Shown: positions 1,923 through 18,800 of the stretch, piece after piece
Numbering within the stretch: the first letter of the stretch is position 1
Layout of the letters: every line of letters starts with the position of its first letter
DNA from: Rhodospirillales bacterium
GTDB taxonomy: Bacteria > Pseudomonadota > Alphaproteobacteria > Reyranellales > Reyranellaceae
Direction of reading: 5' to 3'
Assembly: GCA_016185145.1 (NCBI GenBank)
Contig: JACPOB010000091.1
Location: forward strand, 15,788-47,787
DNA length: 32,000 nucleotides
The notes under the pieces: model-generated
The model's input: the letters and a program-made list of their open reading frames with translations, nothing else
The model's database searches: none
What the model was told of the DNA's origin: nothing
Translations under genes and position numbers: made by a program

Positions 1923-3482
1923 ATGAAAGCCTATTTCATCGGCGGCGGGATCGGATCACTCGCCGGCGCCGCATTCCTGATCCGCGACGGCGGAATCCCA
2001 GGCAACAAAATCACGATCTATGAGAACCTCTCGACCTTTGGCGGGAGTCTGGATGGCGCTCAGCTTCCAGATGGCTCGTATTCGTTGCGCGGCGGCCGCA
2101 TGCTGACGACCGACCACTACGAATGCACTTGGGATCTGCTTTCGACCATTCCCTCGATTGCGCACGCAGGCCAAACCGTCCGCGACGAAACGGTCGCATT
2201 CAACCTCAAGCATCAAGCCCATTCCAAGGCGCGACTCGTCGACCGTAACCGCTCCAAGGTTGATGTGTCGACAATGGGCTTTACCATGCGCGATCGCGAG
2301 GAACTGGTGCGCCTGGCGATGGCCTCGGAAGAAGAGCTCGGCAACAGCCGCATCACGGATTGGCTGTCCCCGGCATTCTTTGAGACAAATTTCTGGTACA
2401 TGTGGCAAACGACGTTCGCCTTTCAGCCCTGGCACAGCGCGGTCGAGCTCAAACGCTATCTGCATCGGTTCATGAACGAGTTTTCGCGCATCGAGACGCT
2501 CGGCGGCGTCAAGCGAACCATCTACAACCAGTATGACGCCATCGTTCGTCCCGTGGAAGCATGGCTCAAAGATCATGGCGTTCGGTTCATCAGCGACGGG
2601 CGCGTGACCGACATGGACCTTGCCGACGAAGACGGACAGGTCCAGGTGAAAGGCCTTACGATCGACCGGAAAGGCGCCAAAGTCGTCGTGACGGTCGAAG
2701 CCCACGACCGCGTGTTCTTTCAGAACGGTTCAATGACCGATGCATCAAGCCTCGGATCTATGACGAGGCCTCCCGAACCACTGACGAAAGCCGACAGCGA
2801 AGGATGGGCTCTCTGGGAGAAGATCGCCGCCGGGCGACCGGAATTCGGCAACCCTGCCGTGTTCAACAGTTCGATTCCCGAGACCTATTGGGCATCGTTC
2901 ACGGTGACCTGTCGCGATCGGGGCTTTTTCCAACAGATGGAGGCGTTCTCCGGCAACGCTGCCGGCACTGGAGGGCTCGTCACGTTCAGGGATTCCAATT
3001 GGCTGATGTCGATCGTCCTGTACCATCAACCGCACTTCGTCGGCCAGCAAACCGACGTGGAGGTATTCTGGGGCTATGCCCTGCACCCCGATCGGATCGG
3101 CAATTTCGTGGCCAAGCCAATGTCGGAGTGTGGAGGAGCGGAGATCCTGCGTGAGCTTTGTGGTCATTTGAACTTCGATAATGGGGTCTTTCGACAAGCG
3201 ACCTGCATTCCCTGCCGAATGCCTTACATCACCAGCATGTTTATGCCGCGGCTCAGGTCCGATCGTCCGCTGCCTGTTCCGCCGACTTCCAAGAACCTGG
3301 CGTTCATCAGCCAATTCGTCGAAATTCCGGACGAGGTGGTCTTCACGGTGGAGCATTCGGTGCGCGCGGCTCAAATGGCGGTCTATCAGCTGCTCGGCAT
3401 CGAGCGCCCCGTCCCGCCGATCACACGCCACGACAGGTCGATTAGCGTTCTGATCCATTCGCTGGAGAAGGCGTTTGCCTGA
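1923..3482 (+). CDS. ohyA: oleate hydratase (MCRA family, FAD-dependent)
   Basis: 519-aa ORF. N-terminal FAD fold (KAYFIGGGIGSLAGAAFLIRDG), GGSLDG, and the RGGRML..HYECTWDLL block typical of myosin-cross-reactive-antigen/oleate hydratases. Confidence 0.85.
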   Translation: MKAYFIGGGIGSLAGAAFLIRDGGIPGNKITIYENLSTFGGSLDGAQLPDGSYSLRGGRMLTTDHYECTWDLLSTIPSIAHAGQTVRDETVAFNLKHQAHSKARLVDRNRSKVDVSTMGFTMRDREELVRLAMASEEELGNSRITDWLSPAFFETNFWYMWQTTFAFQPWHSAVELKRYLHRFMNEFSRIETLGGVKRTIYNQYDAIVRPVEAWLKDHGVRFISDGRVTDMDLADEDGQVQVKGLTIDRKGAKVVVTVEAHDRVFFQNGSMTDASSLGSMTRPPEPLTKADSEGWALWEKIAAGRPEFGNPAVFNSSIPETYWASFTVTCRDRGFFQQMEAFSGNAAGTGGLVTFRDSNWLMSIVLYHQPHFVGQQTDVEVFWGYALHPDRIGNFVAKPMSECGGAEILRELCGHLNFDNGVFRQATCIPCRMPYITSMFMPRLRSDRPLPVPPTSKNLAFISQFVEIPDEVVFTVEHSVRAAQMAVYQLLGIERPVPPITRHDRSISVLIHSLEKAFA

Positions 3483-4307: not shown

Positions 4308-5063
4308 TTAGAACCAAGTCCGCAGGCCGACCGTGAAGCGGACCTGCTGAGTCGGACCGCCGGCGGCACTGACGTAATCGGCGGTAGCGCCGTATTGGCC
4401 GAAATAGGTGATGCCGAGATAGGGCGCGAACTCTCGCGTTATTTCGTAGCGGAGACGCAGCCCCACATCGAGCTCCGAAAGCCCGGCGCCGACGTTCCGT
4501 GCCGGGTCGTCCTTGGTGTAGAAATTCATCTCGAACTGCGGCTGCAGGACCAGGCGCTGTGTGATGAAGAGATCGTAGCTGGCCTCCAGCCTGGCCGCGA
4601 GATGCCCCTCGCCGCTGACGTAGCCGAACGCGGAGACCTTGAAGAAGCCCGGCGCCAATCCCTGGATGCCGATGCCGCCCCAGCCGCGACTGGGCAACGA
4701 GTCCAAGTCCCATCGCACACCGACCAAAGCGTCGAAATAGGTCGTGATGGCACGGCCGTAAAACAGCTGCTGGATGCCGTCGTCCAGTTGGTTGTCGCTA
4801 TAACGGCCTTCGCTCAATAGCCAGATCTTGTTCTCGTCGGTGCCGACCCAGCCCGACGCCTCCCAGCGGAAAGTGTTGCCCTGGGCGAAGCCGAAGCGCC
4901 CTTCCAGCTGGTCGAACAGCAGATGGGCAAAGATCGCCTTGTCGAGCAACTGCGGCATGCCTTGTGGCTGGTCGGCGGTGGGCGTCTGTTGAGCGTGGGC
5001 ATTGCCCGCCAGCCCGGCGGCGAGCAGGACAACCGCGCAGAGCGCGGCGCGGAGCTTGGTCAT
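4308..5063 (-). CDS. copB: copper resistance protein B (outer-membrane CopB/PcoB family)
   Basis: Signal peptide (LLAAGLAGNAHAQQ) followed by a beta-barrel-type sequence ending in an aromatic residue (..GLRTWF). Its ATG overlaps the copA stop (ATGA). Confidence 0.85.
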   Translation of the reverse strand: MTKLRAALCAVVLLAAGLAGNAHAQQTPTADQPQGMPQLLDKAIFAHLLFDQLEGRFGFAQGNTFRWEASGWVGTDENKIWLLSEGRYSDNQLDDGIQQLFYGRAITTYFDALVGVRWDLDSLPSRGWGGIGIQGLAPGFFKVSAFGYVSGEGHLAARLEASYDLFITQRLVLQPQFEMNFYTKDDPARNVGAGLSELDVGLRLRYEITREFAPYLGITYFGQYGATADYVSAAGGPTQQVRFTVGLRTWF

Positions 5064-6910
5064 GATATGCGCACCTCGCGCATCATGCCCGTCTCCATGT
5101 GGTAGAGGAGATGGCAGTGGAAGGCCCAGCGGCCGGGCTCGTCGGCGCTCACCAGGAAGCTCAGCTTCTCACCGGGCTTGACCAGAATGGTATGCTTGTA
5201 CGGGCGGTATTCGCCTTGCCCGTTCTCCAGCTCGCTCCACACGCCATGCAGATGCATCGGGTGCTCCATCATGGTGTCGTTGATCAGGGTGAAGCGTACC
5301 CGCTCGCCGAGCCGAAGCGTGATCGGCGCGGCATCCGAGAATTTCGTGCCGTCGAAGCTCCACATGAAACGGTCCATGTTGCCCGTCAGGTGCAGCACGA
5401 TCTCACGCGTCGGCGGTCGCGGGTCGTTGCCGCGCTTGGCGTTCCGGAGGTCGGTCAAACGCAGCACTCGCCGGCCGTTGCCGTCGAGCCCGCCGCCCGC
5501 TTCGGCGAGACGGTTCCTTGGCGCCATGGCGACGTTGTCTACGCCGACACGGCCTTCGAGCCAGGTGGCAGCGTCTTGCCCGGACATGCCGGCCATCGCC
5601 CCTTGGCTCGGCGCCGCGCCACTCATGCCCGGCATGGCGGCATAATTGGGCGGCGTGGCCGTCGTCGGTCCATGCGTCATGCCGGGCATCGAACCGTGCT
5701 GCATTCCAGAACCCTGGTTCGTCCCCGGCACGGCGTGGCCCGTGTGGGCGTTGTTCGATGCGCCCCGCCCAGAGCTGCCGTGTCCCGAGCCTCCGTGTTC
5801 CATGCCCATGTCGACCATGGTGCGCATCGGCCGTGGATCCATCGGCGGGATCGCCGCTTGCATGCCGAGCTGCGGGGCCAGGGTGCCACGCGCGAACCCG
5901 GTGCGGTCCTGGGTCTGGGCGAAGATCGTGAAGGCGCGCGCCTGGCGCGGCTGGACGATCACGTCATAGGTCTCGCCCGGGCCGATTCGGAACTCATCGA
6001 CCGTGACCGGCACGACGTCGTTGCCGTCACTTTGCACCACGGTCATCGGCAAGTCGGGGATGCGCACATCGAAGATGCTCATGGTGCCGGCATCGATGAA
6101 GCGCAACCGCACCCGCTCACCAGGCCGAAACAGAGCCGTCCAGTTGGCCGCCGGCGGCTGGCCGTTCATGAGATAGGTGTAGGTCGCACCCGTCACGTCG
6201 AGAATGTCGGTCGGGCCCATACGCATCTTGGCCCACATCAGACGATCCTGGATCGTCGGGCCAAGGCCATCGCGCCTGACGTCGTTTATGAACGTGCCCA
6301 GCGTGCGCTGATTGTAGTTGTAATAGTCGGCGTCGAACTTGAGCTTACTGATGATGGTGAGAGGGCTCTCGTCGCTCCAGTCCGACAGCACGATCACATA
6401 GTCGCGATCGAAGGCCTGCGCAAAGCCGCCCTTGGGCTCGATGACCAGAGAACCGTAGACGCCGGTCTGCTCCTCGGCGCCATGCGCATGGTACCAGTAG
6501 GTGCCGCTCTGGCGTACGGGAAAGCGGTAGGTGAACGTCTGGCCCGGCGCGATGCCGTTGAAGCTGAAGCCCGGCACGCCGTCCATCGGCGAGGGCGTGC
6601 GGATGCCATGCCAATGGATCGACGTCGGGAAGGACAACCGGTTGGTGACCGCGAGCGTGACGGTCTCGCCTTCGCGCCACCGTAGGATCGGACCGGGGAC
6701 CTGGCCGTTGATTGCCGTTGCGGTCATGGTCCGGCCGGTGACGTTGAAGGGCAGTGGACCGATGTCGAGCTTGAACTCGGTGCCGCTCAAGACCTGTTGG
6801 GGCGCTCCGGCCAGGGCTGCGCGCCATGGCGGCACGGTAACCAGAGCACCCGCGGCAGCAGCTCCCTGGACGAAGCGTCGGCGGCCGACGCTCGGACGAC
6901 TCCCAGTCAT
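5060..6910 (-). CDS. copA: copper resistance multicopper oxidase CopA/PcoA, Tat-exported
   Basis: Tat motif GRRRFVQGAAAAG. Cu-site motifs HWHG, WYHAH, HPMHLHG and HCHLLYHMETGMM. Contains a Met/His-rich insert. I place the start at the ATG at 6910 (MTGSRPSV...) because it overlaps the stop of the upstream cusF-like frame (ATGA); the track ORF extends to 6964. Confidence 0.9.
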   Translation of the reverse strand: MTGSRPSVGRRRFVQGAAAAGALVTVPPWRAALAGAPQQVLSGTEFKLDIGPLPFNVTGRTMTATAINGQVPGPILRWREGETVTLAVTNRLSFPTSIHWHGIRTPSPMDGVPGFSFNGIAPGQTFTYRFPVRQSGTYWYHAHGAEEQTGVYGSLVIEPKGGFAQAFDRDYVIVLSDWSDESPLTIISKLKFDADYYNYNQRTLGTFINDVRRDGLGPTIQDRLMWAKMRMGPTDILDVTGATYTYLMNGQPPAANWTALFRPGERVRLRFIDAGTMSIFDVRIPDLPMTVVQSDGNDVVPVTVDEFRIGPGETYDVIVQPRQARAFTIFAQTQDRTGFARGTLAPQLGMQAAIPPMDPRPMRTMVDMGMEHGGSGHGSSGRGASNNAHTGHAVPGTNQGSGMQHGSMPGMTHGPTTATPPNYAAMPGMSGAAPSQGAMAGMSGQDAATWLEGRVGVDNVAMAPRNRLAEAGGGLDGNGRRVLRLTDLRNAKRGNDPRPPTREIVLHLTGNMDRFMWSFDGTKFSDAAPITLRLGERVRFTLINDTMMEHPMHLHGVWSELENGQGEYRPYKHTILVKPGEKLSFLVSADEPGRWAFHCHLLYHMETGMMREVRIS

Positions 6911-7397
6911 GAGTGACCTCCTGTGGCGGGCGCGATCGAGTCGATAAGGTATGCGCCGTCGCAAACCCGCTCCATCACGAAGCGCACGTGGGTGCCGGGC
7001 TTGATGGAGCCTGGGTCCACCGACGGTGCGACGGAAGGGTCCGTCATCATTGCCGGCCAGCCGATCCCTCGGGGGAGTGGTTCAGGGCCGGCATCGAGCC
7101 ATGGTCCATCGTGCTGTCGTCCATTCCACGCACTGTAGCCGGGGTCGCAGGGCTCGGTTGATGGCTCATCCCGCTCACGGATGCGGGGGCAGTTGGGCCG
7201 GCCTGCACGGTGCCATAGCCTTCACCCTCGCCGGCAAGGGCTGCGTTGCGCGGGATGCGTGAGGCATTCCCCAGATCGACCGCCAGCGGGGCAGAACCGG
7301 ACTGCGGCGGGACGACGACCAGAGCTTGGTCTGCGCAGGCGGCAAGGACAAGCAAGGACGAGCTCCAGAACAGCAGATGAAGTGAAGGAAGCTTCAT
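6907..7397 (-). pseudogene. CusF-like periplasmic copper-binding lipoprotein, interrupted by a frameshift at a homopolymer
   Basis: The N-terminal frame (start 7397) has a lipobox (LLVLAAC) and a Met/His-rich segment, and stops at 7047. The C-terminal frame reads IGWPAMMTDPSVAPSVDPGSIKPGTHVRFVMERVCDGAYLIDSIAPATGGHS* and ends in an ATGA overlap with copA. The two frames join if the G5 run at 7071..7075 (C5 on the coding strand) had one more base. Confidence 0.65.
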
Positions 7398-7458
7398 CGA
7401 AACTCTCGCAAAGAGATCAAACCAAAATTTACACAAGCCGCTTCTGCGCCGCCGCACA

Positions 7459-7472
7459 TTGATCCAGCTCAA
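7459..7472. promoter_or_regulatory. FNR/FixK-type box TTGATCCAGCTCAA
   Basis: Perfect TTGA-N6-TCAA. Its centre is about 68 nt upstream of the cusF-like start (7397, minus strand). That fits a class II site at about -41.5 with a short leader. Confidence 0.6.
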
Positions 7473-7662: not shown

Positions 7663-8382
7663 ATGATGATCGCCAGCAGAGCTATGCAGGCCGCGAGCTT
7701 GGCAATCGTGATTGGCGTGTGCGGCTTGGCGTTGCCGGCGTCGGGTCAACAGACGCCACCGGCAACCGGCACCCAACCCAAGCCCCCGATGCAGCCCGGC
7801 CCGAGCATGGGCGCGCAGATGCAGCAGCAAGGCATGGAACACGGTCGCATGGGCCAGGGCATGGGCATGGAGGGCAAAGGCATGGGCGGTGCCAACATGC
7901 AGAACATGCAGACGCCGGGCGCTTGCTCCGGCGGACAATGCGGTGGCATGGAAGGCTCAGCGATGCAGGGTCAAATGCCCGGCATGGGACCGAGCGGAGT
8001 GCCGGCGCAAAGCGTGGGCCCGCAGATGATGCAGATGATGATGCAGGGCCATATGGCCGATCTGCCATGGGACCACATCGAGGGACGGATTGCCTACTTG
8101 CATGCCGAGCTGCAGATCACCGAGGCCCAGATGCCGGCGTGGACGGAATTCGCCAATGTGCTGCGTGCCAACGCCAAGCGGATTGCGGAAGTACAAAAGG
8201 CGCCGCAGCGAACGACGACGACCGCAGCCGACAGGATGGATGATCAGGAGCGTTGGCTGACTGCGCGGTTGGAGAGCGTGCGGGCCTTGAAACCTGCCTA
8301 CGTCAAGCTCTACGCTGCGCTCGACGACAAGCAGAAGAAGATCGCTGACGAACTTCTCGCCCCTCACATGGGCATGAGGTAA
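7663..8382 (+). CDS. periplasmic Met-rich protein with C-terminal Spy/CpxP-like (LTXXQ-type) domain
   Basis: Signal peptide, then a Met/Gln/Gly-rich stretch (MQPGPSMGAQMQQQGMEHGRMGQGMGMEGKGMGG...MMQMMMQGHM). The C-terminus (LQITEAQMPAWTEF...ERWLTARLESVRALKPAYVKLYAALDDKQKKIADELL) resembles alpha-proteobacterial Spy/CpxP-family proteins. RBS GGAGA sits 7 nt upstream. Confidence 0.75.
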   Translation: MMIASRAMQAASLAIVIGVCGLALPASGQQTPPATGTQPKPPMQPGPSMGAQMQQQGMEHGRMGQGMGMEGKGMGGANMQNMQTPGACSGGQCGGMEGSAMQGQMPGMGPSGVPAQSVGPQMMQMMMQGHMADLPWDHIEGRIAYLHAELQITEAQMPAWTEFANVLRANAKRIAEVQKAPQRTTTTAADRMDDQERWLTARLESVRALKPAYVKLYAALDDKQKKIADELLAPHMGMR

Positions 8383-8425
8383 GAGCACATCACGTGCAAG
8401 CTTCATGGTGTACCGTGCCCCCCGG

Positions 8426-8489
8426 CGATATCGCGTCCTCGCCTGACGCAAATGAGCATTCTCCCCCGCCAGGCGGGGGCGCGATATCG
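8426..8489. repeat. nested inverted repeat between the Spy-like gene and hupS (possible terminator or attenuator)
   Basis: The outer 10-bp arms CGATATCGCG (8426..8435) and CGCGATATCG (8480..8489) are exact reverse complements. They enclose an inner GC hairpin, CCCCCGCC (8463..8470) with GGCGGGGG (8472..8479). No T-tract follows. Confidence 0.4.
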
Positions 8490-8557
8490 TTCCATTCCAG
8501 GCTTGTCTTCCGCGCGAGCGCAAACAAGCGGCGAAGCGCGTGAGGGAGGATGGCACC

Positions 8558-9526
8558 ATGCGAGCCCGTCCGTCGGTGTACGAGGAACTGCGAAACCAGG
8601 GCGTGTCGCGACGCGGCTTCCTGAAGTTCTGCGGCTACATGAGTTCGGTGTTGGCGTTGCCGGCGGGCAGCACCGAGGCGATCGCGCAAGCGCTTACTTC
8701 CAAGCCGCGTCCGAGCGTGATTTGGCTGTCGGTGCAAGAATGCACGGGCTGCAGCGAGTCTCTGCTTCGTTCGTTCGAGCCAACGCTCGAGAGCCTCATT
8801 CTCGATTCCATTTCGTTGGACTACCATCATGTGTTGCAAGCCGCCGCCGGCGAAGCCGCCGAAGCGGCTCGCGACCAGGCAATCGAGCAGAACTGGGGCA
8901 AGTACTTTCTGATCGTCGACGGCTCGATTCCGGGCAAGGACGCAGGCGCACGCTCGACCACCGGCGGCAAGGCCGGGCTTGCGCTGGTGCGCAATGCAGC
9001 CCAAGGAGCGGCGGTGATTGCGGCCGTGGGCACGTGCGCGACTTTTGGCGGCATCGGAGCCGCGGCGCCCAATCCGTCGGGAGCCTTCGGCGCCGCGGAC
9101 GCACTCGGCGACCTGGTCGCCGCCGGCAAGGTGAAAGCGCCGATCGTCAACGTTCCCGGCTGTCCGCCGGTACCCGAGGTGATCACTGGCCTCGTTACCT
9201 ACTACCTGACCTATGGGTCGATTCCTGCTCTCGACGATCTGCGGCGGCCCAAGGTCTTCTTCGGGAAGACCGTCCATGACGACTGCCCGCGGTTGCCGTT
9301 TTTCGAGCGTCAGCAGTTCGCCCGCAGCTTCGACGACGAAGGCGCGCGCAAGGGATGGTGCCTCAAGGAGCTTGGTTGCAAGGGCCCCCTCACCTTCAAC
9401 GCCTGCACCACCGTCAAGTGGAACCAAGGCAGCAGTTTTCCGATGTATTCCGGGCATGGCTGCCTGAGCTGCGCCCAGCCGAATTTCTGGGATCGGCCCG
9501 GCGGCTTTTACACCAAGCCGTTCTGA
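8558..9526 (+). CDS. hupS: [NiFe]-hydrogenase small subunit, Tat signal, no C-terminal membrane anchor
   Basis: Tat motif SRRGFLKF. Proximal cluster motifs ECTGCSES, GTCATFGG and PGCPP. Distal and medial cluster region HDDCPR...WCLKELGCKGP...NACTTVKWN...GHGCLSC. The protein ends about 17 aa after the last Cys (FYTKPF*). I place the start at the ATG at 8558, with RBS GGGAGGA 7 nt upstream; the track GTG is at 8540. Confidence 0.9.
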   Translation: MRARPSVYEELRNQGVSRRGFLKFCGYMSSVLALPAGSTEAIAQALTSKPRPSVIWLSVQECTGCSESLLRSFEPTLESLILDSISLDYHHVLQAAAGEAAEAARDQAIEQNWGKYFLIVDGSIPGKDAGARSTTGGKAGLALVRNAAQGAAVIAAVGTCATFGGIGAAAPNPSGAFGAADALGDLVAAGKVKAPIVNVPGCPPVPEVITGLVTYYLTYGSIPALDDLRRPKVFFGKTVHDDCPRLPFFERQQFARSFDDEGARKGWCLKELGCKGPLTFNACTTVKWNQGSSFPMYSGHGCLSCAQPNFWDRPGGFYTKPF

Positions 9527-9565
9527 AGAAACGAGAGGCCGGCCTTCTGACGGGGAGAACGTTCG

Positions 9566-11290
9566 ATGGCGCGAGTTGTTGTTGATCCGGTAACCCGCAT
9601 CGAGGGGCATCTCCGGATCGAAGCGGAAACCGACGCCAAAGGCGTCATCACCCGTGCCTCGAGCTCGGGGACCATGATGCGCGGCATTGAGCTCATCCTG
9701 AACGGACGCGACCCGCGTGATGCCTGGGCATTCACGCAGCGGTTCTGTGGGGTCTGCACGGTGGTCCACAGCATCGCGTCGGTGCGCGCGGTCGAGTTTG
9801 CGCTGGGCTACGAGATACCGCCGAACGCCCAGCTCATCCGCAACATCATGATCGCGACCCAGTTTGTCCACGATCACGTCGTGCACTTCTACCATCTTCA
9901 CGCACTCGACTGGGTCGACGTCATCTCGGCGGCCGGCGCCGATCCGGCCGCCACCTCGCGGCTCCAGCGCTCGCTCAGTCCTTGGCCCAACAACAGCGCC
10001 GACTACTTTTTGACCGTCCGTGAGCGGCTGCGGCGTTTCATTGACGGCGGTCAGCTTGGCATCTTCACCAACGGCTATTGGGGCCATCCCGAGTACAAGT
10101 TGCCGCCGGAGGTCAATCTCCTCGCATTCGCGCACTACCTCGAGGCACTGTCCTGGCAGCGGGAAGTCGTCAAGATCCATGCCATCTTCGGCGGCCGCAA
10201 TCCGCATCCCAACTTCGTGGTAGGGGGCGCTCCCTGCGCAATCAGCGAAGGCGAGCGCGTCACGGCGGTGTCGGCCGCGACCCTCAAGCAGGTGGGCGAC
10301 ATCATCGACAAGATGCGCGACTTCGTCGACCACGTCTACCTGCCCGACACCCTGGCCATCGCCAGCTACTACAAGGACTGGAGCCTGCGGGGCGAGGGCA
10401 TCGGAAACTTCCTGTGCTACGGTGATCTTCCACGCGGGACCGATACCTTCAACACATCCACTCTGCTCTTTCCCCGTGGCGCCATACTCGATCGCGACTT
10501 GTCCAAGGTGCTGCCCGTCGATCTCGAAGATCCGGCGCAGGTCCAGGAGTTCGTGAGCCATTCCTGGTACGATTACTCGGTGGGCAAGCATGCCCCACTC
10601 CACCCGTACGATGGCGAGACGCGGCCGAACTACACCGGTCCACAGCCTCCCTATCAACATCTCGACGTCGATCGCTCCTACTCCTGGATCAAGTCGCCGC
10701 GTTGGCGCGGCAAGCCCATGGAAGTGGGCCCGCTGGCCCGCATGTTGGTGCTCTATGCGACCGGCGACCGCAAAGCCCGGGAGCTGGTCGACAGCAGTCT
10801 GAAAACGTTGGATCTGCCGATCCAAGGTCTCTACTCCACGCTCGGCCGGGTCGCTGCGCGAACCCTCGAAACCAAGATACTGGCCGACGCGCTGGCCGAC
10901 ATGCATCGGTCCTTGCTGCGCAACATCGCGGCCGGTGATCGGTCGACGTTCAACGACAGCCTTTTCGATCCATCGACCTGGCCGGCTCAAGCCCGCGGGG
11001 CAGGGTTCATGGAGGCGCCCCGCGGTGCGCTGGCCCACTGGGTCACAATCGAGAAGGGCAAGATCACGAACTATCAAGCCGTCGTTCCCAGCACCTGGAA
11101 CGCGGGTCCTCGCGACGCGCAAGGGCAGGATGGACCTTACGAGGCCGCACTAACAGGGCATCGGCTCGCCGATCCGGCCCGCCCGTTGGAGATCTTGCGG
11201 ACCATACACAGCTTCGACCCTTGCCTGGCTTGTGCCGTTCATGTCGTCGATCCCAACGGCCGCGAGCTTGTCGAGGTCAAGGTTCTGTAA
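9566..11290 (+). CDS. hupL: [NiFe]-hydrogenase large subunit (group 1-like)
   Basis: N-terminal VVDPVTRIEGH and RFCGVCTVVH. C-terminal DPCLACAVH followed by a 15-aa extension (VVDPNGRELVEVKVL) of the kind removed by the maturation protease. Confidence 0.92.
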   Translation: MARVVVDPVTRIEGHLRIEAETDAKGVITRASSSGTMMRGIELILNGRDPRDAWAFTQRFCGVCTVVHSIASVRAVEFALGYEIPPNAQLIRNIMIATQFVHDHVVHFYHLHALDWVDVISAAGADPAATSRLQRSLSPWPNNSADYFLTVRERLRRFIDGGQLGIFTNGYWGHPEYKLPPEVNLLAFAHYLEALSWQREVVKIHAIFGGRNPHPNFVVGGAPCAISEGERVTAVSAATLKQVGDIIDKMRDFVDHVYLPDTLAIASYYKDWSLRGEGIGNFLCYGDLPRGTDTFNTSTLLFPRGAILDRDLSKVLPVDLEDPAQVQEFVSHSWYDYSVGKHAPLHPYDGETRPNYTGPQPPYQHLDVDRSYSWIKSPRWRGKPMEVGPLARMLVLYATGDRKARELVDSSLKTLDLPIQGLYSTLGRVAARTLETKILADALADMHRSLLRNIAAGDRSTFNDSLFDPSTWPAQARGAGFMEAPRGALAHWVTIEKGKITNYQAVVPSTWNAGPRDAQGQDGPYEAALTGHRLADPARPLEILRTIHSFDPCLACAVHVVDPNGRELVEVKVL

Positions 11291-11338
11291 AACGGATGAG
11301 CTCTCATGGCAGGCGAATCGGTTGTGTGGAACGAGAAA

Positions 11339-12100
11339 ATGTCTAATCGCAAGATTGCCGTTAAACGTGCCGCAGGGATGGCCTTGATCGGGGCGTTGGC
11401 AATTCCCGGCAGCGTGTCGACGCTGGCAAGGCCGACGCCGGGCTACGGTGATCTGATCGACCAGTACTGCATTTCGCAGGGGCGCCTGCGTGTGGCGGCT
11501 CATCAATCGCACTGTGCGATGTGCCATCAGACGGGAACATTCGACAGTCTGCCGGCTCATCGTGTTCAGCCCAATTGGACGGAGTTTGAAAACGCCAAGG
11601 CGACCGGCGACTTCAGCTTCTTCTGTCCCGGTGGAGGTGGGGCGGCGTTCCCCTCACTGCCTTCCGGCGGAACGGGGATCCAGCGGCCCGCAACGGGGGC
11701 TGGAGCGTCGCCGCATGCGATGCCGATGCCTCCGGCGAACGCGCCCCAGCCTCCTTCTGTGGCCGATCGGCAACCCGCGGTCGCCGCGGAAGTCGAAGAC
11801 CGCCTGAAGCGCTTTCGCGACGAGGTCGGGATCGGCCAGCCTGAGCCGGCGGCCTGGACCGCCTTTGCCGAGGCCGTGCGCGCTGCCGCAGCGGCCGACC
11901 GCCGCGCGTTCGCGGATCAGACATCGCGTGAGGCGCCAGATGCGCTCAGCCTCGCACGCCAGCAGGAGCGGCGCCTGTCGGCACGGATCGGCGCGCTGCG
12001 CTATGTTGCGACGGCCTTCACTCGCCTTCTGCCGGAATTGAACGATCAGCAGCGCAAGATCGCCAACGAGCGCTTTGCCCTGATTCTAGAGGTCCTCTAA
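11339..12100 (+). CDS. exported fusion protein: N-terminal CxxCH (haem-c motif) domain + Pro/Ala/Gly linker + C-terminal Spy/CpxP-like domain
   Basis: Signal peptide MSNRKIAVKRAAGMALIGALAIPGSVSTLA. Single CAMCH motif plus two further Cys (DQYC, FFCPGG). Linker contains HAMPMPP. The C-terminus is paralogous to the 7663..8382 protein (AWTAFAEAVRAAAAA...ERRLSARIGALRYVATAFTRLLPELNDQQRKIANE). An alternative upstream ATG is at 11306. Confidence 0.7.
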   Translation: MSNRKIAVKRAAGMALIGALAIPGSVSTLARPTPGYGDLIDQYCISQGRLRVAAHQSHCAMCHQTGTFDSLPAHRVQPNWTEFENAKATGDFSFFCPGGGGAAFPSLPSGGTGIQRPATGAGASPHAMPMPPANAPQPPSVADRQPAVAAEVEDRLKRFRDEVGIGQPEPAAWTAFAEAVRAAAAADRRAFADQTSREAPDALSLARQQERRLSARIGALRYVATAFTRLLPELNDQQRKIANERFALILEVL

Positions 12101-12114
12101 GGAAGGAGGATGTC

Positions 12115-12339
12115 GTGTGTCTCGCCGTTCCGATGCGAATCGATTCGATTGACCGATTTGTGGCGCAGTGTTCGGTCCGCGGGGTGTCGCGCGACGTCAG
12201 TCTTTTCATGCTGGAGGAGGGTTCGGTCTCGGTCGGCGACTATGTGCTTGTCCACGTGGGCTACGCCATCCAGGTGATCAGCGCTGCCGAGGCGGCGGCG
12301 ACGTGGGAAATCTTCGACGAAGCTCTTTCGACAGCGTAA
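12115..12339 (+). CDS. hypC: hydrogenase maturation chaperone HypC/HupF family
   Basis: Begins (GTG)MCLAVPMRI, the essential N-terminal Cys motif. 74 aa. RBS GGAAGGAGGA lies directly upstream. Confidence 0.9.
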   Translation: MCLAVPMRIDSIDRFVAQCSVRGVSRDVSLFMLEEGSVSVGDYVLVHVGYAIQVISAAEAAATWEIFDEALSTA

Positions 12340-12348
12340 GGGGGCGTC

Positions 12349-12714
12349 GTGCACGAACTTTCCATTTGCCAGGCTCTTCTCGACGAGGTGTCGCGAGTTG
12401 CTCGACAGCATGGGGCCGAGCGCGTCCTGTCCGTGACCGTCCGAGTAGGCCCCTTGTCTGGCGTCGACTCCGGCTTATTGACGCGAGCATTCAAGGTCGC
12501 GCGCCAGGGCACGGTGGCCAGCGGCGCGCGCCTGTGCATCGACAGGGCTGCCGTGATGCTCGAATGCCGGCAGTGCGGTCGATGCACGACTGGTCGAACC
12601 GGTCGCTTCCGATGCGGCTTCTGCGGCGCGCGCGACGTCGATGTCACCGCGGGCGAGGAGCTGGTTCTTCAGACCCTGGAGCTGGAAACGACGGAGGAAA
12701 GCCATGTGCAATGA
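12349..12714 (+). CDS. hypA: hydrogenase nickel insertion protein HypA
   Basis: N-terminal MHE motif (GTG start) and a zinc site CRQCG...CGFCG. 121 aa. Confidence 0.9.
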   Translation: MHELSICQALLDEVSRVARQHGAERVLSVTVRVGPLSGVDSGLLTRAFKVARQGTVASGARLCIDRAAVMLECRQCGRCTTGRTGRFRCGFCGARDVDVTAGEELVLQTLELETTEESHVQ

Positions 12715-13468
12715 TTGTGGCTGTGCGGTGCCGGACTCGGCGAAACATCACGATAGAATACGTACGCACACCGCGTCGGTCGCAGTGCTGAAGGACCTTC
12801 TTGCCGAGAACGACCGAACGGCCCGGCACAACCAGGTGCACTTCGACGCGGCGGGCGTCTTCGCGATCAACCTGATGTCGGCCCCAGGGTCCGGCAAGAC
12901 AGCGCTCCTCGAGGCAACGATCGAAGCTTTGAAAGGGAAGCGACGGGTGGCGGTCATCGAAGGTGATCTTGCTACCGAGAACGATGCCGAGCGGATTCGA
13001 CGGCATGGCGTCCCCGCGGTCCAGATCACAACGGGAACGGCCTGCCATCTCGACGCGCACATGATCCACGAGGTCTTGCACGACATGCCGCTTCAGGATC
13101 TCGACATCCTGTTCATCGAGAACGTGGGCAACCTGGTGTGCCCCGCATCGTTCGATCTCGGGCAACACCGAAATGTGACCCTGCTGTCGGTCCCCGAAGG
13201 CGACGACAAGCCGGCCAAGTACCCGGTAATGTTCAGGGGCAGCGACGCCATCCTCGTCAGCAAGACCGACCTTCTGCCCCACTTCGACGATTTTCGGCTC
13301 GAACGGGCGCAGGCGGCGGTGCGGAGCATCGCCTGCGATTCGCCCATTATCAGCGTCTCCGTACGCACCAGCAACGGCCTCCGCCATTGGATCGACTGGC
13401 TGGACCGACAACTGGCCCAGTATCGAGGTGGCGAGCGGCCGGCCGTCGCCGTGGAAGCGGCCTCATGA
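12704..13468 (+). CDS. hypB: hydrogenase nickel incorporation GTPase HypB
   Basis: Starts MCNDCGC (high-affinity Ni motif). P-loop GSGKT, then ENVGNLVCP. No poly-His tract. The start at 12704 overlaps the hypA end by 11 nt. The track ORF begins earlier at 12641. Confidence 0.9.
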   Translation: MCNDCGCAVPDSAKHHDRIRTHTASVAVLKDLLAENDRTARHNQVHFDAAGVFAINLMSAPGSGKTALLEATIEALKGKRRVAVIEGDLATENDAERIRRHGVPAVQITTGTACHLDAHMIHEVLHDMPLQDLDILFIENVGNLVCPASFDLGQHRNVTLLSVPEGDDKPAKYPVMFRGSDAILVSKTDLLPHFDDFRLERAQAAVRSIACDSPIISVSVRTSNGLRHWIDWLDRQLAQYRGGERPAVAVEAAS

Positions 13469-14592
13469 GGGGCTCAGCCAAGGCGTGGCTGGAGCGCATT
13501 CGTGGACTGCCCTTGGAGCGACCGCTCAGCATTCTCAACGTCTGCGGCGGGCACGAGCGGACGCTGGCGCAGGCCGGCCTGCGGGCCGCTCTGCCCGAGA
13601 CAATTCGGATCATTCCGGGCCCCGGTTGTCCGGTTTGCGTCTGTCCGGAGGAAGACGTCTACGAGGCGATTCGCTTGGCACTGGAGGACAACACCATCCT
13701 CGTGGCCTTCGGTGACATGTTGCGCGTGCCTGTCAACGTCGCCAAGGGGGAGGTTCGCTCCCTCAGCGAAGCGCGTGCCAAGGGCGCCGACGTGCGGCCG
13801 ATTGCAAGCCCGCGTGAGGCGGTAGCCATTGCCCAAACTTACCCGACCAAGCGTACCGTCTTCTTTGCGGCCGGCTTCGAAACTACGATGGCCCCCGTGG
13901 CGTCCATGCTCTGCGAAGGGGTGCCGGAGAACCTGCTCTTGCTTTTGTCGGGGCGGCTCACCTGGCCGGCGGTCGACATGTTGCTGGCGTCGGAAGCGCC
14001 CGGGTTCGAGGCTTTGATCGCGCCCGGCCACGTGGCGACCGTCATGGGGCCTGAGGAGTGGTCTTTCGTGGCCGACCAGTACGGCATGCCGGCGGCCGTG
14101 GCGGGCTTCACGGCGGAGAGCCTGTTGGCCGCCATCCACTCTGTGCTGACGCAACTTCTTGCCGGCACCGCGGTCTTGGAGAATTGCTATCCAGCCAGCG
14201 TCCGCCGGGGTGGCAATCGGATCGCCAAGCAGTACCTGTCGCGCGCCATGCGAGTCGTCGACGCAAACTGGCGCGCCATCGGCACGATTGCCCGTTCCGG
14301 CTTTGCCCTTGTCGAGGCTTTCGCAAGCCACGACGCACGTAGCCTGTTGGCGCTGTCGGAGACCGCGCAGCGTCGGCGGGCGGGAGAGATGCCGCCCGGC
14401 TGCGATTGCGCCCGCGTCGTGCTGGGCAAGGTTCTGCCGACGGACTGCAAGCTCTATGGTAAAGCCTGCACTCCTCGAAGCCCCATCGGACCGTGCATGG
14501 TGTCGGATGAGGGTGCCTGTCACATCTGGTGGACGTCGGGCATTCGAGACTCTCGAAGTGGCCGTCAGGGACGTCCCACTTACGCGGCTTGA
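13465..14592 (+). CDS. hypD: hydrogenase maturation protein HypD
   Basis: Motifs CGGHE, GPGCPVCVCP, GFETT and PGHV. ATGA overlap with the hypB stop. The track ORF (13138) has a spurious Arg-rich 5' extension. Confidence 0.9.
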   Translation: MRGSAKAWLERIRGLPLERPLSILNVCGGHERTLAQAGLRAALPETIRIIPGPGCPVCVCPEEDVYEAIRLALEDNTILVAFGDMLRVPVNVAKGEVRSLSEARAKGADVRPIASPREAVAIAQTYPTKRTVFFAAGFETTMAPVASMLCEGVPENLLLLLSGRLTWPAVDMLLASEAPGFEALIAPGHVATVMGPEEWSFVADQYGMPAAVAGFTAESLLAAIHSVLTQLLAGTAVLENCYPASVRRGGNRIAKQYLSRAMRVVDANWRAIGTIARSGFALVEAFASHDARSLLALSETAQRRRAGEMPPGCDCARVVLGKVLPTDCKLYGKACTPRSPIGPCMVSDEGACHIWWTSGIRDSRSGRQGRPTYAA

Positions 14593-14598
14593 AGGGCA

Positions 14599-15084
14599 AT
14601 GCCAGCCCCGCCACTCACGCTCGTTCTAGGGTATGGCAACTCGTCGTATGCCGACGATGGCCTCGGAACGAATGCCATTGCCTATCTGAAGGCGCAGGAG
14701 TCGGCGGCAGACCTGCCTGCTGATCTGTTGCTGCTCGACGGCGGAACGGCCGTTTTCGAGCTGGTGGATCATATAGAGCGGTGCGACCGTCTGGTCGTGA
14801 TCGATGCGGCAGAGATGGCCGCAGCGCCGGGCACGGTGCGCTGCTTTGTCGGTGTCGATATGGACCGGCAGCTCGGGCAAGCACGGCGCACGGCGCATGA
14901 GGTTGCGTTACGTGATGTCTTGGACATCGCCCGACTCGAGGAAAGGTTACCTGGGCGGCGAGCACTCATCGGCGTGCAACCCAAGAGCCTCGACTTCAAG
15001 GTTGGGTTGTCGACGGAAGTGGAGCGATCGCTGCCGATTGTTCGCGAGCGGCTCCTTCACGTGATTTTCCATGAATGGAAGTAG
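14599..15084 (+). CDS. hupD: hydrogenase maturation endopeptidase (HupD/HyaD/HybD family)
   Basis: LVLGYGNSSYADDGLG motif, the conserved Asp/His pattern, 161 aa. It matches the cleavable C-terminal extension on the large subunit. Confidence 0.85.
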   Translation: MPAPPLTLVLGYGNSSYADDGLGTNAIAYLKAQESAADLPADLLLLDGGTAVFELVDHIERCDRLVVIDAAEMAAAPGTVRCFVGVDMDRQLGQARRTAHEVALRDVLDIARLEERLPGRRALIGVQPKSLDFKVGLSTEVERSLPIVRERLLHVIFHEWK

Positions 15085-17380
15085 CGTGACGGTCGGCTCT
15101 CTCGCTTCCGTCCTCCTGCTGGTCGAAGGGCGCGTTCAAGGCGTCGGCTTTCGCCCCTTCATCTGGCGATTGGCGCGAGATCACCGTCTGGCCGGCTGGG
15201 TGCGCAATGACGGCGCCCATGTGCTGATACGCCTGGAAGGAACCGAACAGGAGATCGCTGTATTTTCCCGGCAGCTGGTCGACGGATCGCCTCCCCTGGC
15301 GCGGCCTCAGCTGACCTCGATCAAGCCGCTCGCCTGGGAGGGCTATGCCGACTTCTCGATTGAGCCCAGTGTCGTTGGCGAATCCGCCGCCGCGTCAATT
15401 CCACCGGATCACTTTGCCTGTCCCGAGTGTCTGGCGGAGCTGCGTGATCCGTCGATGCGGCGATATCGTTATCCCTTCATCAACTGCACGCAGTGCGGTC
15501 CCCGATACACGATCATCGACTCCCTTCCTTACGACAGGCCCAACACGGCCATGGCTCCGTTTCGGATGTGCGCCGCCTGCCAAGCCGAATATGAGCGTCC
15601 CGAAGATCGCCGCTATCACGCCCAACCGCTGGCCTGCGCCGAATGCGGGCCCAGGCTGCAGTTCGTCACAAACGATGCCTTATTGTCCGACAGTTCTCTC
15701 GACGGCGAGGCGGCCCTCGGCGCAGCGATCTCGTGTCTGCGTCAAGGCCTCATCGTCGCCGTCAAGGGCATCGGCGGATTTCATCTCTTGTGCGACGCGA
15801 AGGCGGAGGCGACCGTCCAGCGCCTTCGGCAGCGCAAGCGGCGGCCACAAAAGCCGTTGGCAGTAATGGTGAAACAGAGCGGGCCGGACGGCTTGCAATA
15901 TGCGCGAGCGGTGGCACGGCTGTCAGAGGTGGAGGCGGCGGCTCTGGTCGATCCTATGCGACCTGTAGTCATCGCGACAAAGGGACAAGAGGTACTCGCG
16001 CCATCCATAGCGCCGGGGCTTGGCGAAATTGGCCTACTGTTACCCTACAGCCCTTTGCACGCGCTGCTGCTTGACGAATTCGGCGGCCCGCTTGTTGCCA
16101 CCAGCGGCAACTGTTCAGGCGATCCGGTGGAGATCGACGAGGGCTCGGCCGTCAAGCGGTTGGGCGACGTCGCGGACGCCTTTCTCATCCACAACCGACC
16201 GATCCGGCGGCCGGCTGACGATCCGGTGTGCCGGGAGATTGCCGGGCAGGTCCGGCCCTTGCGTTTGGGACGTGGCAATGCGCCCTTGCAGCTTGGACTG
16301 CCGGCACGGCTCGAGCGCCCGCTCTTGGCGGTCGGTGGTCACATGAAGAGCACGATTGCGCTGGCATGGGCCGACCGGGCCGTCGTGTCGCCCCATATTG
16401 GTGACCTCGGATCACCGCGAAGTCAGTCACTGTTTGTGGACGTTGTGCAGGGCGTGCAGAAGCTGTTTGGCATTCGGGCGCAAGCGATGGTCTGCGATCT
16501 CCATCCTGGCTACAGCTCCACGCGCTGGGCTCGCCGCAGTGGGCTGCCGGTGATCGCCGTCCAGCATCACCGCGCACATGCCTCGGCCTTGGCAGGCGAG
16601 CACGCGCGCGCCTCCGACATGCTGGTGTTCACGTGGGATGGCTTAGGCATAGGAGACGACCATACGCTGTGGGGTGGTGAGGCATTCTTCGGCACGCCTG
16701 GTCACTGGCGCCGAGTCGCCTCGTTCCGACCGTTCCGACTGCCGGGTGGAGAACGAGCCGCACGCGAGCCGTGGCGCTGCGCCTTGGGTCTCTGCTGGGA
16801 GGCAGGCATGGATTGGGGCGACGCATCCGCAGAGAGCCGGCTGTTGCGGAGAGCTTGGGAGGCCAACATCAACTGTCCGGCCACGACTTCAGTTGGACGG
16901 CTGTTCGACGCTGCGGCTGCGCTTCTGGGCTTCGCCGGCCGTGCGAGCTACGAGGCGCAGGCAGCGATGTGGCTGGAGGCGCAGGCGAGCCATGCCGAGG
17001 CGACAGCAATGCCCCTGCGAACAGAGGCTGGACTTACAGTCGCCGATTGGGAGCCGCTGATGCGGAGCCTAGCCGATGCCTCCCTTTCGGTCGGTGAGCG
17101 TAGCGCCATCTTCCACGAATCGTTGGCGAGCACCCTCCTGGACCAGGCAACACTGGTCCGTACGACGACCTCGATCCATACCGTTGGGCTGGTCGGTGGT
17201 GTGTTCCAGAACAGGCGGCTGACCGAGCGGGCAGTGCACTTGCTCACGGCAGCCGGTTTCGAAGTATTGCTGCCAACGGCCGTGCCGATGAACGACGCCG
17301 GCCTCAGCTACGGGCAGATCGTCGAGGCGGCAGCCTTGCAAGCAACAGCACCGCGAAGGCAAAGCGCACATGCACGCTGA
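15071..17380 (+). CDS. hypF: carbamoyltransferase HypF
   Basis: Acylphosphatase-like N-terminus (VEGRVQGVGFRPF). Two zinc-finger pairs (CPECLAEL...CTQCGPRYT and CAACQAEY...CAECGP). YrdC-like and Kae1-like regions follow. The start could alternatively be the GTG at 15086. Confidence 0.9.
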   Translation: MNGSSVTVGSLASVLLLVEGRVQGVGFRPFIWRLARDHRLAGWVRNDGAHVLIRLEGTEQEIAVFSRQLVDGSPPLARPQLTSIKPLAWEGYADFSIEPSVVGESAAASIPPDHFACPECLAELRDPSMRRYRYPFINCTQCGPRYTIIDSLPYDRPNTAMAPFRMCAACQAEYERPEDRRYHAQPLACAECGPRLQFVTNDALLSDSSLDGEAALGAAISCLRQGLIVAVKGIGGFHLLCDAKAEATVQRLRQRKRRPQKPLAVMVKQSGPDGLQYARAVARLSEVEAAALVDPMRPVVIATKGQEVLAPSIAPGLGEIGLLLPYSPLHALLLDEFGGPLVATSGNCSGDPVEIDEGSAVKRLGDVADAFLIHNRPIRRPADDPVCREIAGQVRPLRLGRGNAPLQLGLPARLERPLLAVGGHMKSTIALAWADRAVVSPHIGDLGSPRSQSLFVDVVQGVQKLFGIRAQAMVCDLHPGYSSTRWARRSGLPVIAVQHHRAHASALAGEHARASDMLVFTWDGLGIGDDHTLWGGEAFFGTPGHWRRVASFRPFRLPGGERAAREPWRCALGLCWEAGMDWGDASAESRLLRRAWEANINCPATTSVGRLFDAAAALLGFAGRASYEAQAAMWLEAQASHAEATAMPLRTEAGLTVADWEPLMRSLADASLSVGERSAIFHESLASTLLDQATLVRTTTSIHTVGLVGGVFQNRRLTERAVHLLTAAGFEVLLPTAVPMNDAGLSYGQIVEAAALQATAPRRQSAHAR

Positions 17381-18389
17381 ACTCGACAAGCTGAGGCGCG
17401 ACCTGCTCGAACAGTCGGTGACGTTGGCGCATGGCAACGGCGGGCGCCTCACCCGCGAGCTGGTGGACGGAATCTTCGCCTTCCACCTACGTGGCGACAC
17501 ATCAGTCGATGCGGCCCCGCTCAAGCCGGTCGATGGAGAGCTCGTCATGACGACAGACGGCTTCATCGTCGAGCCGCTGGAATTCCCCGGGGGAAGCATC
17601 GGGAGCCTCGCTGTCAACGGCACTGTAAACGATCTGGCGGTCATGGGTGCCAGGCCCCTGTACCTCACGCTTAACGCGTTCATTGAAGAAGGGCTCGAGG
17701 TCCGTCTCTTGGATCGATTGATCGCCGATGCCGCACAGGCGGCCGGCGCAGCCGGCGCGGCCGTGATCGCTGGCGACACGAAGGTGCTCCGTCAGGGTGA
17801 AGGCAGCGGGCTGTATCTCGGCATGGCCGGGGTCGGCGTGCGTCGGCCAAGCTTGAGGCTCGGCCTAGAACACATTCGAGCTGGAGACAGAGTGCTCGTC
17901 AGCGGAACCGTAGGCGATCATGGCGCGGCCGTGCTGCTTGCCCGGCAGGATTTTGGGTTGGCCGGCCATTTGCGCTCCGATTGCGCGAGCGTCCTCGAAG
18001 TGGCGATGGCGCTTCTCGGCATTCGAGGTCTTCGGTTCATGCGCGATCCTACACGCGGAGGCCTTGCGACTGTCGCCCACGATATTCTTCGCGGAACTGG
18101 CTGTGGCGTTCAGCTCTACGAGGCGGGAATTCCCGTAAGCGAGGCGGCCAGGGGCATCTGCGAGATGCTCGGTTTTGACCCGCTGATCTTGCCAAGCGAA
18201 GGACGTCTGATCGCCGTCGTGGCGGCTGATACCGCAGCGAGCGCGTTGATGGCGATGCGACGGCATGGGTGTCCGGACGCTGCCATTGTCGGCACCGTCA
18301 CAAGCGATCCCTACGTTGCGCTCAAGACCGAACTGGGCGAACGCCTTATCGAGGAGTTGGAGCACGACCCCTTGCCGAGGATCTGCTGA
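17370..18389 (+). CDS. hypE: hydrogenase maturation protein HypE
   Basis: LAHGNGG near the N-terminus, a PurM-like fold, and a C-terminus ending PRIC. Overlaps hypF by 11 nt. Confidence 0.9.
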   Translation: MHAELDKLRRDLLEQSVTLAHGNGGRLTRELVDGIFAFHLRGDTSVDAAPLKPVDGELVMTTDGFIVEPLEFPGGSIGSLAVNGTVNDLAVMGARPLYLTLNAFIEEGLEVRLLDRLIADAAQAAGAAGAAVIAGDTKVLRQGEGSGLYLGMAGVGVRRPSLRLGLEHIRAGDRVLVSGTVGDHGAAVLLARQDFGLAGHLRSDCASVLEVAMALLGIRGLRFMRDPTRGGLATVAHDILRGTGCGVQLYEAGIPVSEAARGICEMLGFDPLILPSEGRLIAVVAADTAASALMAMRRHGCPDAAIVGTVTSDPYVALKTELGERLIEELEHDPLPRIC

Positions 18390-18392
18390 GCG

Positions 18393-18800
18393 TCATCGAG
18401 GCGACTGTCCCAGCGACTCCAACTTGGCCTGTAGCGTATCGGCTGCTTCCGCCGCTTCCGCGATGGTGGCCGCAAGAAGCGTCGGCACCAAAGCCACCTC
18501 GATTGCGGAACCGAGATGATTGCCGCCGTCGTTCGCATGGTCGAGCCACCAGACGGCGGAGAACGCCGTCTCCTCAATCCTCGTTAAGCCGAGCGCATGC
18601 ACTTCGATTGACACTTCGCCCTTCCCAAGGCCGCCGCGGAGGGCCGTCAAGTCGTCCGCCGTGAGCGGCAGGCGTCGCAGATCGACCGTCACCGCTTGGC
18701 CAGTGGCAGCCAGGGCGCGCAAACCGGCGACGACTTCGTTCAGGATCGCAGCCACCATGGGGGAAACCCCACCGTTTCCAAATGGCGAGGTTGTGCTCAC
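18393..18800 (-). CDS. hydrogenase accessory protein, single HupH_C-like (HyaF/HoxQ C-terminal) domain
   Basis: LPLTADDLTALRGGLGKGEVSIEV...RIEETAFSAVWWL resembles the HupH/HyaF pattern L..LG.GEVS....I.ET.F.GVW. GTG start with RBS GGGAGGG. Its stop is only 3 nt from the hypE stop (convergent). Family assignment is from memory. Confidence 0.6.
   Translation of the reverse strand: MSTTSPFGNGGVSPMVAAILNEVVAGLRALAATGQAVTVDLRRLPLTADDLTALRGGLGKGEVSIEVHALGLTRIEETAFSAVWWLDHANDGGNHLGSAIEVALVPTLLAATIAEAAEAADTLQAKLESLGQSPR

Follow-up and report, generated by a model that had tools for sequence, protein, structure and literature searches.

How does a hydrogenase that carries neither a membrane anchor nor a recognised membrane partner pass its electrons on? 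In aerobic proteobacteria, uptake hydrogenases of group 1 are commonly regarded as membrane-bound enzymes, linked to quinone through a cytochrome b or Isp proteins. The question is raised by the genes hynS and hynL, which encode the small and large subunits of a [NiFe]-hydrogenase in a 32,000-nt stretch of DNA from a Rhodospirillales bacterium (hereafter the window, whose numbering is used for all positions unless another locus is named). On balance, with confidence slightly better than even, we favour the reading in which HynSL would be a soluble periplasmic hydrogenase reducing its own co-encoded c-type cytochrome, the candidate being the product of the open reading frame (ORF) at 11306-12100, directly downstream of hynL.

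Both subunits have the features of a group 1 [NiFe]-hydrogenase. HynL holds the motifs RFCGVC and DPCLACAVH and is extended at its C-terminus by 15 residues for cleavage by a protease, and HynS has a twin-arginine translocation (Tat) signal with the motif SRRGFLKF together with the proximal, medial and distal ligands of three Fe-S clusters, all of which align with the references. A deposited protein from a metagenome-assembled Rhodospirillales bacterium is 100% identical to HynL, and the closest isolate by this subunit is Enhydrobacter aerosaccus ATCC 27094, with 93% identity. The hynS ORF opens with GTG at 8540, and the ATG at 8558 is preceded by the ribosome-binding site GGGAGGA; counted from this ATG, HynS has 322 aa and is equal in length to the Enhydrobacter homologue. 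Its C-terminus, AQPNFWDRPGGFYTKPF, ends 17 residues past the last CxxC, and with only 39 nt between the hynS stop and the hynL start, an anchor could not be accommodated. The proximal cluster is of the standard four-cysteine type (ECTGCSES, GTCATFGG, PGCPP), where E. coli HyaA and Bradyrhizobium HupS carry ECTCC and GTCASWGC at the equivalent columns of the alignment; the six-cysteine signature of group 1d (CTCC, G.C...GC) is absent from HynS. The initial annotation of this DNA, which had described the Tat signal, the missing anchor and the standard rather than six-cysteine proximal signature, is borne out on all three points, and also in its remark that the enzyme departs from the rhizobial uptake type, for it differs from the HupSLC of Bradyrhizobium (locus L090). 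From these features HynSL is predicted to be an anchorless enzyme exported by Tat.

As to the membrane partners, tblastn with HyaC, HupC, HybA, HybB and two Isp1/Isp2 pairs turned up nothing in the 32 kb window beyond short matches attributable to chance (E >= 0.009), while as a control the partner queries find each other across genera and species at E 1e-34 to 1e-92. Neither a cytochrome b of the HyaC/HupC type nor an Isp or HybAB protein is thus encoded in the window, as had been claimed; but the wider claim, that the enzyme has no partner, did not hold, because the candidate partner ORF at 11306-12100 had been overlooked.

Moreover, the loss of the anchor and of the membrane-partner genes is a lineage trait that defines a conserved branch. 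A comparison set of 80 genome loci with HynL relatives falls into two classes. In the Isp-type class, measured at 54 loci, hynS and hynL stand 1.9-2.8 kb apart and the gap is filled by genes for a NarI-like Isp1 and an HdrD-like Isp2 (Fer4_8 and CCG domains), against 34-192 nt and no gene in the Isp-less class; the small-subunit tail has 55-69 residues with an Ala/Gly/Val-rich hydrophobic stretch (maximum 19-mer hydropathy 1.4-2.4) in the former, against 17 residues in the latter, or 28-34 non-hydrophobic ones in its Chromatiaceae. The Isp-less members are the window, Enhydrobacter, six Bradyrhizobium loci, Nevskia, pBBta01 of Bradyrhizobium sp. BTAi1, a Chromatiales metagenome-assembled genome (MAG) and five Chromatiaceae, and the 17-residue tail with a hynS-hynL gap of 34-64 nt is found at 14 genome or plasmid loci. 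The window itself comes from a MAG, so that a short HynS might be put down to an assembly or sequencing error, which the initial annotation had named as one way in which its claim could fail, or to a decaying pseudogene cluster. However, the stop position of the small subunit is common to at least 25 independent loci from isolates and metagenomes; stop and tail motif (GGFYxKxF) are identical in Enhydrobacter ATCC 27094, Bradyrhizobium BTAi1, B. denitrificans, B. diazoefficiens and independent metagenomes; and the cluster ligands, the Tat motif and the full set of maturation genes are intact. With isolates and unrelated metagenomes sharing this stop, a truncating error can be ruled out, and error and decay taken together have a negligible probability.

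The ORF at 11306-12100 encodes 264 aa, begins 15 nt past the hynL stop (11290) and ends 14 nt before the hypC start (12115). Its N-terminus, basic and then hydrophobic, ends at a conserved boundary between A and RP, as in a signal peptide. The homologue in BTAi1 is WP_011931026. There follow a module of about 70 residues (11429-11638) arranged as C...CxxCH...C, with the pattern GYG.LID.YC ... HC.MCH..GTFD..P.HRV.PNW.EF ... FFCP, then a Pro/Ala/Met-rich linker, and finally an LTXXQ helical domain (about 11843-12070); in databases the protein is labelled hypothetical or 'LTXXQ motif family protein'. A CxxCH motif in a protein exported by the general secretory (Sec) route, in a proteobacterium that contains the cytochrome c maturation (Ccm) system, is the canonical attachment site of haem c, and the ORF product combines an export-type N-terminus with CxxCH, as expected of a c-type cytochrome. 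Two further invariant cysteines flank the motif, and C14, C29, C32, H33, F65 and C66 are invariant in 22/22 module sequences from both sub-lineages.

It is the distribution of this module that ties it to the hydrogenase. In six-frame translations the hidden Markov model (HMM) of the module matches the ORF directly after hynL in 22 of the 22 Isp-less loci and nothing else, and it has no match in about 60 Isp-type loci, A. macleodii (Alteromonas), Methylovirgula, E. coli hya/hyb or Bradyrhizobium hup. The reverse search with the module protein yielded 13 metagenome loci, where hynL is directly upstream in all 11 that extend upstream and hypC is downstream in 12, the remaining contig ending at the module gene. 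The co-occurrence of the module with an Isp-less HynL is thus perfect in both directions. Among 1.84 billion representative proteins, searched exhaustively with HMMER, module homologues form only 20 clusters, and a word-indexed search with the 70-aa module alone gave no match, where the full-length query did find homologues. The domain is covered by no family database and the partner gene is undescribed; we found no description in the literature of the Isp-less clade or of this gene.

The part behind the module varies. LTXXQ is the C-terminal fusion partner in Alphaproteobacteria and Nevskia, and in the long forms of Chromatiaceae type, where LTXXQ is absent, the C-terminal part consists of PKD, MopE-motif and cadherin-like repeats, with two extra CxxCH motifs in 4/6 long forms. 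For example, the module heads large secreted proteins with PKD, cadherin-like or 'Cu-binding_MopE' parts at L041 (9782-11899), L072 (3797-5314) and L063 (7844-10435), and at L072 another ORF (5458-6909) bears the module as well. In Thiocystis violacea (L060, 11319-11942), and at no other locus, a module-bearing multihaem protein is followed by a cytochrome b gene of PF01292 (Ni_hydr_CYTB/b561), which fits an electron-transfer role of the module and suggests that the electron chain returns to the membrane in some hosts.

The descent of the enzyme was examined from similarity scores and a tree. HynL scores 856 bits against the Allochromatium vinosum enzyme (PDB 3MYR), 722 and 698 bits against Hydrogenase-1 (4C3O, 3UQY), 621-641 bits against two membrane-bound group 1d enzymes (3RGW, 3AYX), 564 bits against Hyd-2 and 542 bits against that of D. 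vulgaris, and the best PDB match of HynS is likewise 3MYR (357 bits). The identity of HynL is 64-68% to the Isp-type loci, 57.5% to A. macleodii, 54-56% to group 1d and 48% to HybC. In a neighbour-joining tree of HynL (200 bootstraps, a simple distance method) with 1d and 1c outgroups, the module-bearing clade is recovered at 99% and the Isp clade at 87%, the two being sisters at 82%, and A. macleodii branches just outside both (96%). The window enzyme is therefore placed as a sister of the Isp clade and not nested in it, with 3MYR as its nearest PDB entry, and it is missing the isp1/isp2 genes beside hynS/hynL and the hydrophobic small-subunit extension that are features of HydDB group 1e, a one-line definition of which is given in PMC5037454. 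On this tree the Isp-less HynSL is by descent the sister lineage of the Isp-type group 1e. Other affiliations were tried and rejected: group 1d for want of the six-cysteine signature and of a cytochrome b in the window, group 1c (Hyb-type) for want of HybA/HybB in the window and by the low identity to HybC, and groups 1a/1b, as far as descent is concerned, by the score against D. vulgaris compared with that against 3MYR.

While the enzyme as a whole points to the Isp-type relatives, the electron exit of the small subunit points elsewhere. After the His-x-x-Cys of the distal cluster the module clade has C[PTS]R[LRI], with CPRLP in the window, where CYRR stands in 54/54 Isp-type loci, A. macleodii, HyaA and HupS (1d). 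The window segment HDDCPRLPFF compares with HEQCPRLPHF and HDNCPRLPHF of Desulfovibrio, and over the 49-residue distal segment the soluble, cytochrome-c3-reducing enzymes of that genus score highest in the PDB (72.9 and 71.2 bits), as against 65.3 bits for 3MYR, which reverses the ranking obtained with the whole HynS, where 3MYR is far ahead. The module clade also has an insertion of 5-11 residues between the third and fourth proximal cysteines. We infer that the changes at the exit site of HynS reflect docking of a cytochrome. The likeness to Desulfovibrio-type periplasmic enzymes, which had been seen at the outset, can thus be kept for the CPRLP motif and for the candidate c-type cytochrome gene in the operon, but not for descent.

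Several observations weigh against the reading that the ORF product is a cytochrome serving HynSL. The module matches no family in Pfam and NCBIfam, those of known cytochromes included; its AlphaFold2 model has a mean predicted local distance difference test score (pLDDT) of 62, falling below 50 around CxxCH, and Foldseek finds no match for it; a sixth haem ligand is not conserved across the family, the histidine of HRVxPNW being missing from the long forms. The LTXXQ family comprises periplasmic chaperones and metal sensors and no redox proteins, and the fusion to it is without obvious redox role. Alternatively, the downstream protein could be an LTXXQ-type chaperone, metal handler or sensor (Spy/CpxP/ZraP/CnrX-like) tied to the flanking copper genes, whose Cys/His motif binds metal or forms disulfides. 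The LTXXQ domain is recognised by PF07813 (25.4 bits against a gathering cut-off of 24.3, E 2.5e-5) and its helical hairpin is modelled with pLDDT >90, with Foldseek matches to CpxP, Spy and CnrX that are only weak; a second, Met-rich LTXXQ protein is encoded upstream of hynS, the stretch 19926-20087 weakly matches an L001 protein that itself has a weak Pfam Metal_resist match, and copper genes adjoin many of these clusters. However, it is LTXXQ that is absent from the Chromatiaceae-type long forms and the CxxCH module that is invariant, the motif is a canonical haem c site, and both the extra CxxCH motifs of the long forms and the b561 gene of T. violacea are at odds with a purely metal-handling role. 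We give this explanation little credence.

The remaining points on that side concern the membrane. A trio of genes, for a multihaem cytochrome c3/c7-like protein, a membrane protein of about 225 aa and a FAD/NAD/2Fe-2S protein of 570-650 aa, adjoins the cluster in Enhydrobacter, whose HynL is so close to that of the window, at L001 and L102, and in A. macleodii, where it corresponds to the stretch with orf1/cyt/orf2; this trio may be the physiological link to the membrane. Furthermore, the window is 32 kb of a contig of 73.9 kb, and the negatives for isp and cytochrome b apply to these 32 kb. HynSL might accordingly be coupled to membrane and quinone by a partner encoded elsewhere, be it Isp1/Isp2, a cytochrome b or the trio, the CxxCH-LTXXQ protein acting as a bridge or accessory, and the cytochrome b561 gene behind the module gene of T. 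violacea would agree with such a coupling. But within 8-10 kb the trio is absent in the window, where copAB occupies its position, as well as in all Bradyrhizobium loci and in Nevskia, and in all of these the module gene is kept; the anchor still present in Isp-type relatives is gone from the small subunit; and the window encodes no cytochrome b or Isp homologue. Membrane coupling through an outside partner thus appears to us possible but unlikely.

Returning to the favoured reading, in which HynSL reduces a co-encoded cytochrome, the locus would be a self-contained H2-uptake cassette, probably mobile. Cytoplasmic maturation of HynSL would rely on the HypCABDFE set, the protease and the HupH of the cassette itself; Tat would then export the enzyme, which we propose to stay soluble in the periplasm, as its small subunit lacks a C-terminal anchor and the locus encodes neither Isp1/Isp2 nor a cytochrome b. 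H2 would be oxidised at the Ni-Fe site, and the electrons would run along the standard chain from the proximal [4Fe-4S] through the medial [3Fe-4S] to the distal [4Fe-4S] cluster, from there to the Sec-exported 11306-12100 product, whose N-terminal module would hold one c-type haem, and on to the periplasmic cytochrome c pool and so to terminal oxidases or other periplasmic reductases. As for its origin, a sister of group 1e would have given up the anchor and Isp1/Isp2 and gained a cytochrome module in exchange. A bolder proposal goes further, and we consider it improbable as a whole: HynSL would represent an unrecognised group 1 subgroup with a haem-domain acceptor of new fold and possibly of unusual ligation, only four cysteines and one histidine being invariant, fused to metal-binding or chaperone-type domains (LTXXQ in Alphaproteobacteria; MopE-motif/PKD in Chromatiaceae), and the cassette would travel with genes for copper resistance (copAB, Csp, CusF, P-type ATPases), H2 serving, instead of or in addition to respiration, as the reductant for redox homeostasis of metals or the envelope in the periplasm.

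Table. Features of the hyn locus and its surroundings, with the positions of the trio genes at other loci
Feature	Position	Strand	Support or remark
FNR/CRP-like box	7459-7472		consensus match
FNR/CRP-like box, TTGATCCAAGTCAA	7570..7583		some 80 bp 5' of the LTXXQ/hyn genes
LTXXQ-family protein, Met/His-rich, periplasmic, directly 5' of hynS	7663..8382	+	Pfam LTXXQ, E 1.6e-17
hynS, [NiFe]-hydrogenase small subunit	8558..9526	+	Pfam NiFe_hyd_SSU_C and Oxidored_q6
hynL, [NiFe]-hydrogenase large subunit	9566..11290	+	Pfam NiFeSe_Hases, 757 bits
Candidate redox partner ORF	11306..12100	+	alternative start 11339
hypC	12115..12339	+	Pfam HupF_HypC
hypA	12349..12714	+	Pfam HypA
hypB	12704..13468	+	Pfam cobW; ORF opens 12641
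hypD	13459..14592	+	Pfam HypD, E 9e-117
hynD, HyaD/HybD-type maturation endopeptidase	14599..15084	+	Pfam HycI; NCBIfam TIGR00072
hypF	15071..17380	+	five HypF domains
hypE	17370..18389	+	Pfam AIRS and AIRS_C
hupH-like accessory gene, convergent with hypE	18393..18800	-	Pfam HupH_C, E 1.7e-25
FNR/CRP-like box, upstream of hupH	18861-18874		consensus match
Trio genes	L005 2039-5410
Trio genes	L001 2145-5330
Trio genes	L102 2-1320
Trio genes	L087 2240-5723

Within the cluster laid out in the Table, the probable start of hypB is at MCNDCGC, with which the homologue at locus L001 begins likewise, and the hupH-like gene keeps its position and strand across all loci of the LTXXQ subclade. The LTXXQ gene in front of hynS is 72% conserved at the equivalent position in Enhydrobacter and probably shares a transcription unit or island with hynS, and the divergent genes 5' of the hyn cluster are copA (multicopper oxidase, MCO) and copB. 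A 910-aa ORF antisense to hynS and hynL (8390-11122, minus strand) is a high-G+C artefact and not a gene. A scan for sigma-70 promoters and terminators did no better than on shuffled sequence. For FNR/CRP-like boxes (TTGAT-N4-ATCAA with at most 2 mismatches) the window has 16 against 6.0 +/- 2.5 in shuffles, all of them consensus matches only; one at 435-448 lies upstream of a crp/fnr-family gene (488-1270), and others lie between the cop and hyn operons. Such an enrichment hints at a possible low-oxygen control of the locus.

Further outward, a gene of the MCRA (oleate hydratase) family at 1923-3482 (plus strand) has 74-76% identity to one near Bradyrhizobium clusters, and an IS630-like transposase gene (HTH_32 and DDE_3; 24876-25936, plus strand) is located downstream. 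Together with the plasmid location in BTAi1, these genes suggest that the hyn region may be a mobile island, and the Isp-less Hyn lineage as a whole is probably a horizontally mobile cassette.

Copper and heavy-metal genes recur beside the Isp-less Hyn clusters (L086, L012, L007, L003, L041, L087, L093-L103). In the window they are found at 4308-7472 (minus strand), 7663-8382 (plus) and 31127-32000 (plus), as copB, copA (MCO), a Met/His-rich lipoprotein, the LTXXQ protein rich in Met and the beginning of a P-type ATPase with an HMA domain. Elsewhere, MCO, CopB and CusF are encoded on the BTAi1 plasmid, copAB occurs in Nevskia and in one Bradyrhizobium MAG, and Csp, a copper storage protein, at many Bradyrhizobium loci; in A. 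palmeri hynS adjoins a P-type ATPase gene, and the A. macleodii locus includes MerR, an ATPase and a cupredoxin. Queries with copA, copB and Csp found no match in about 60 Isp-type loci. The ORF at 19710-20105 (plus strand), whose C-terminal part (19926-20087) is 70% identical over 54 aa to the L001 protein mentioned above, could be a third LTXXQ-like gene near the cluster, with no Pfam match of its own. A CusF homologue considered at 19004-19624 was rejected, as it had neither Pfam nor tblastn support.

An apparently soluble lineage of this kind, if true, would mean a new wiring of H2 into aerobic electron-transport chains, in hosts such as Bradyrhizobium, Enhydrobacter, Nevskia and purple sulfur bacteria that carry with it an undescribed haem-motif partner of its own. 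It also names a domain outside the family databases and gives it a testable function, and the lineage is represented in culture by E. aerosaccus ATCC 27094, Bradyrhizobium sp. BTAi1 and B. denitrificans LMG 8443. The association with copper resistance is a separate and unexplained lead, for which a parallel case of an Isp-less hydrogenase with metal resistance is already documented in Alteromonas.

Compared with known systems, the group 1d enzymes HupSLC and HyaABC are also group 1 uptake hydrogenases with a Tat signal and are also found in Bradyrhizobium, but the window enzyme, with 54-56% identity in HynL, is without their six-cysteine signature, cytochrome b gene and anchor. The Isp-type HynSL of Allochromatium vinosum (3MYR) and Thiocapsa roseopersicina has in common with it the Tat signal, the four-cysteine proximal cluster and the hupH, hynD and hyp genes, whereas the window differs in having no isp1/isp2, a tail of 17 rather than 55-69 aa, CPRL instead of CYRR, an 8-residue insertion between the third and fourth proximal cysteines of HynS, and a CxxCH-module gene after hynL. 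The nearest characterised Isp-less enzyme is HynSL of Alteromonas macleodii 'Deep ecotype' (PMC3102683), whose plasmid and island context has been described as well (PMC4781885). Like the window, it has adjacent hynS and hynL, no isp, no hydrophobic tail, its own hyp set, mobile DNA and adjoining heavy-metal resistance genes; it differs in its HynL, which with 57.5% identity falls outside the Isp and module clades, in keeping CYRRP, in having no CxxCH-module gene, and in having as neighbours orf1/cyt/orf2 (multihaem cytochrome c3 family, FAD/NAD/2Fe-2S protein), none of which occurs in the window. The last comparison is with the periplasmic [NiFe]-hydrogenases of Desulfovibrio (1b/1a), which reduce cytochrome c3. 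Unlike in Desulfovibrio, the candidate cytochrome here has a single haem motif, is unrelated in sequence to the tetrahaem c3 and is encoded inside the operon, and the hosts are aerobic Alpha- and Gammaproteobacteria; yet the two share CPRLP(H/F)F beside the distal cluster, and the architecture predicted for the window enzyme matches that of Desulfovibrio: a Tat-exported soluble heterodimer with a small-subunit tail of about 15-17 residues past the last cysteine and a c-type cytochrome as presumed acceptor.

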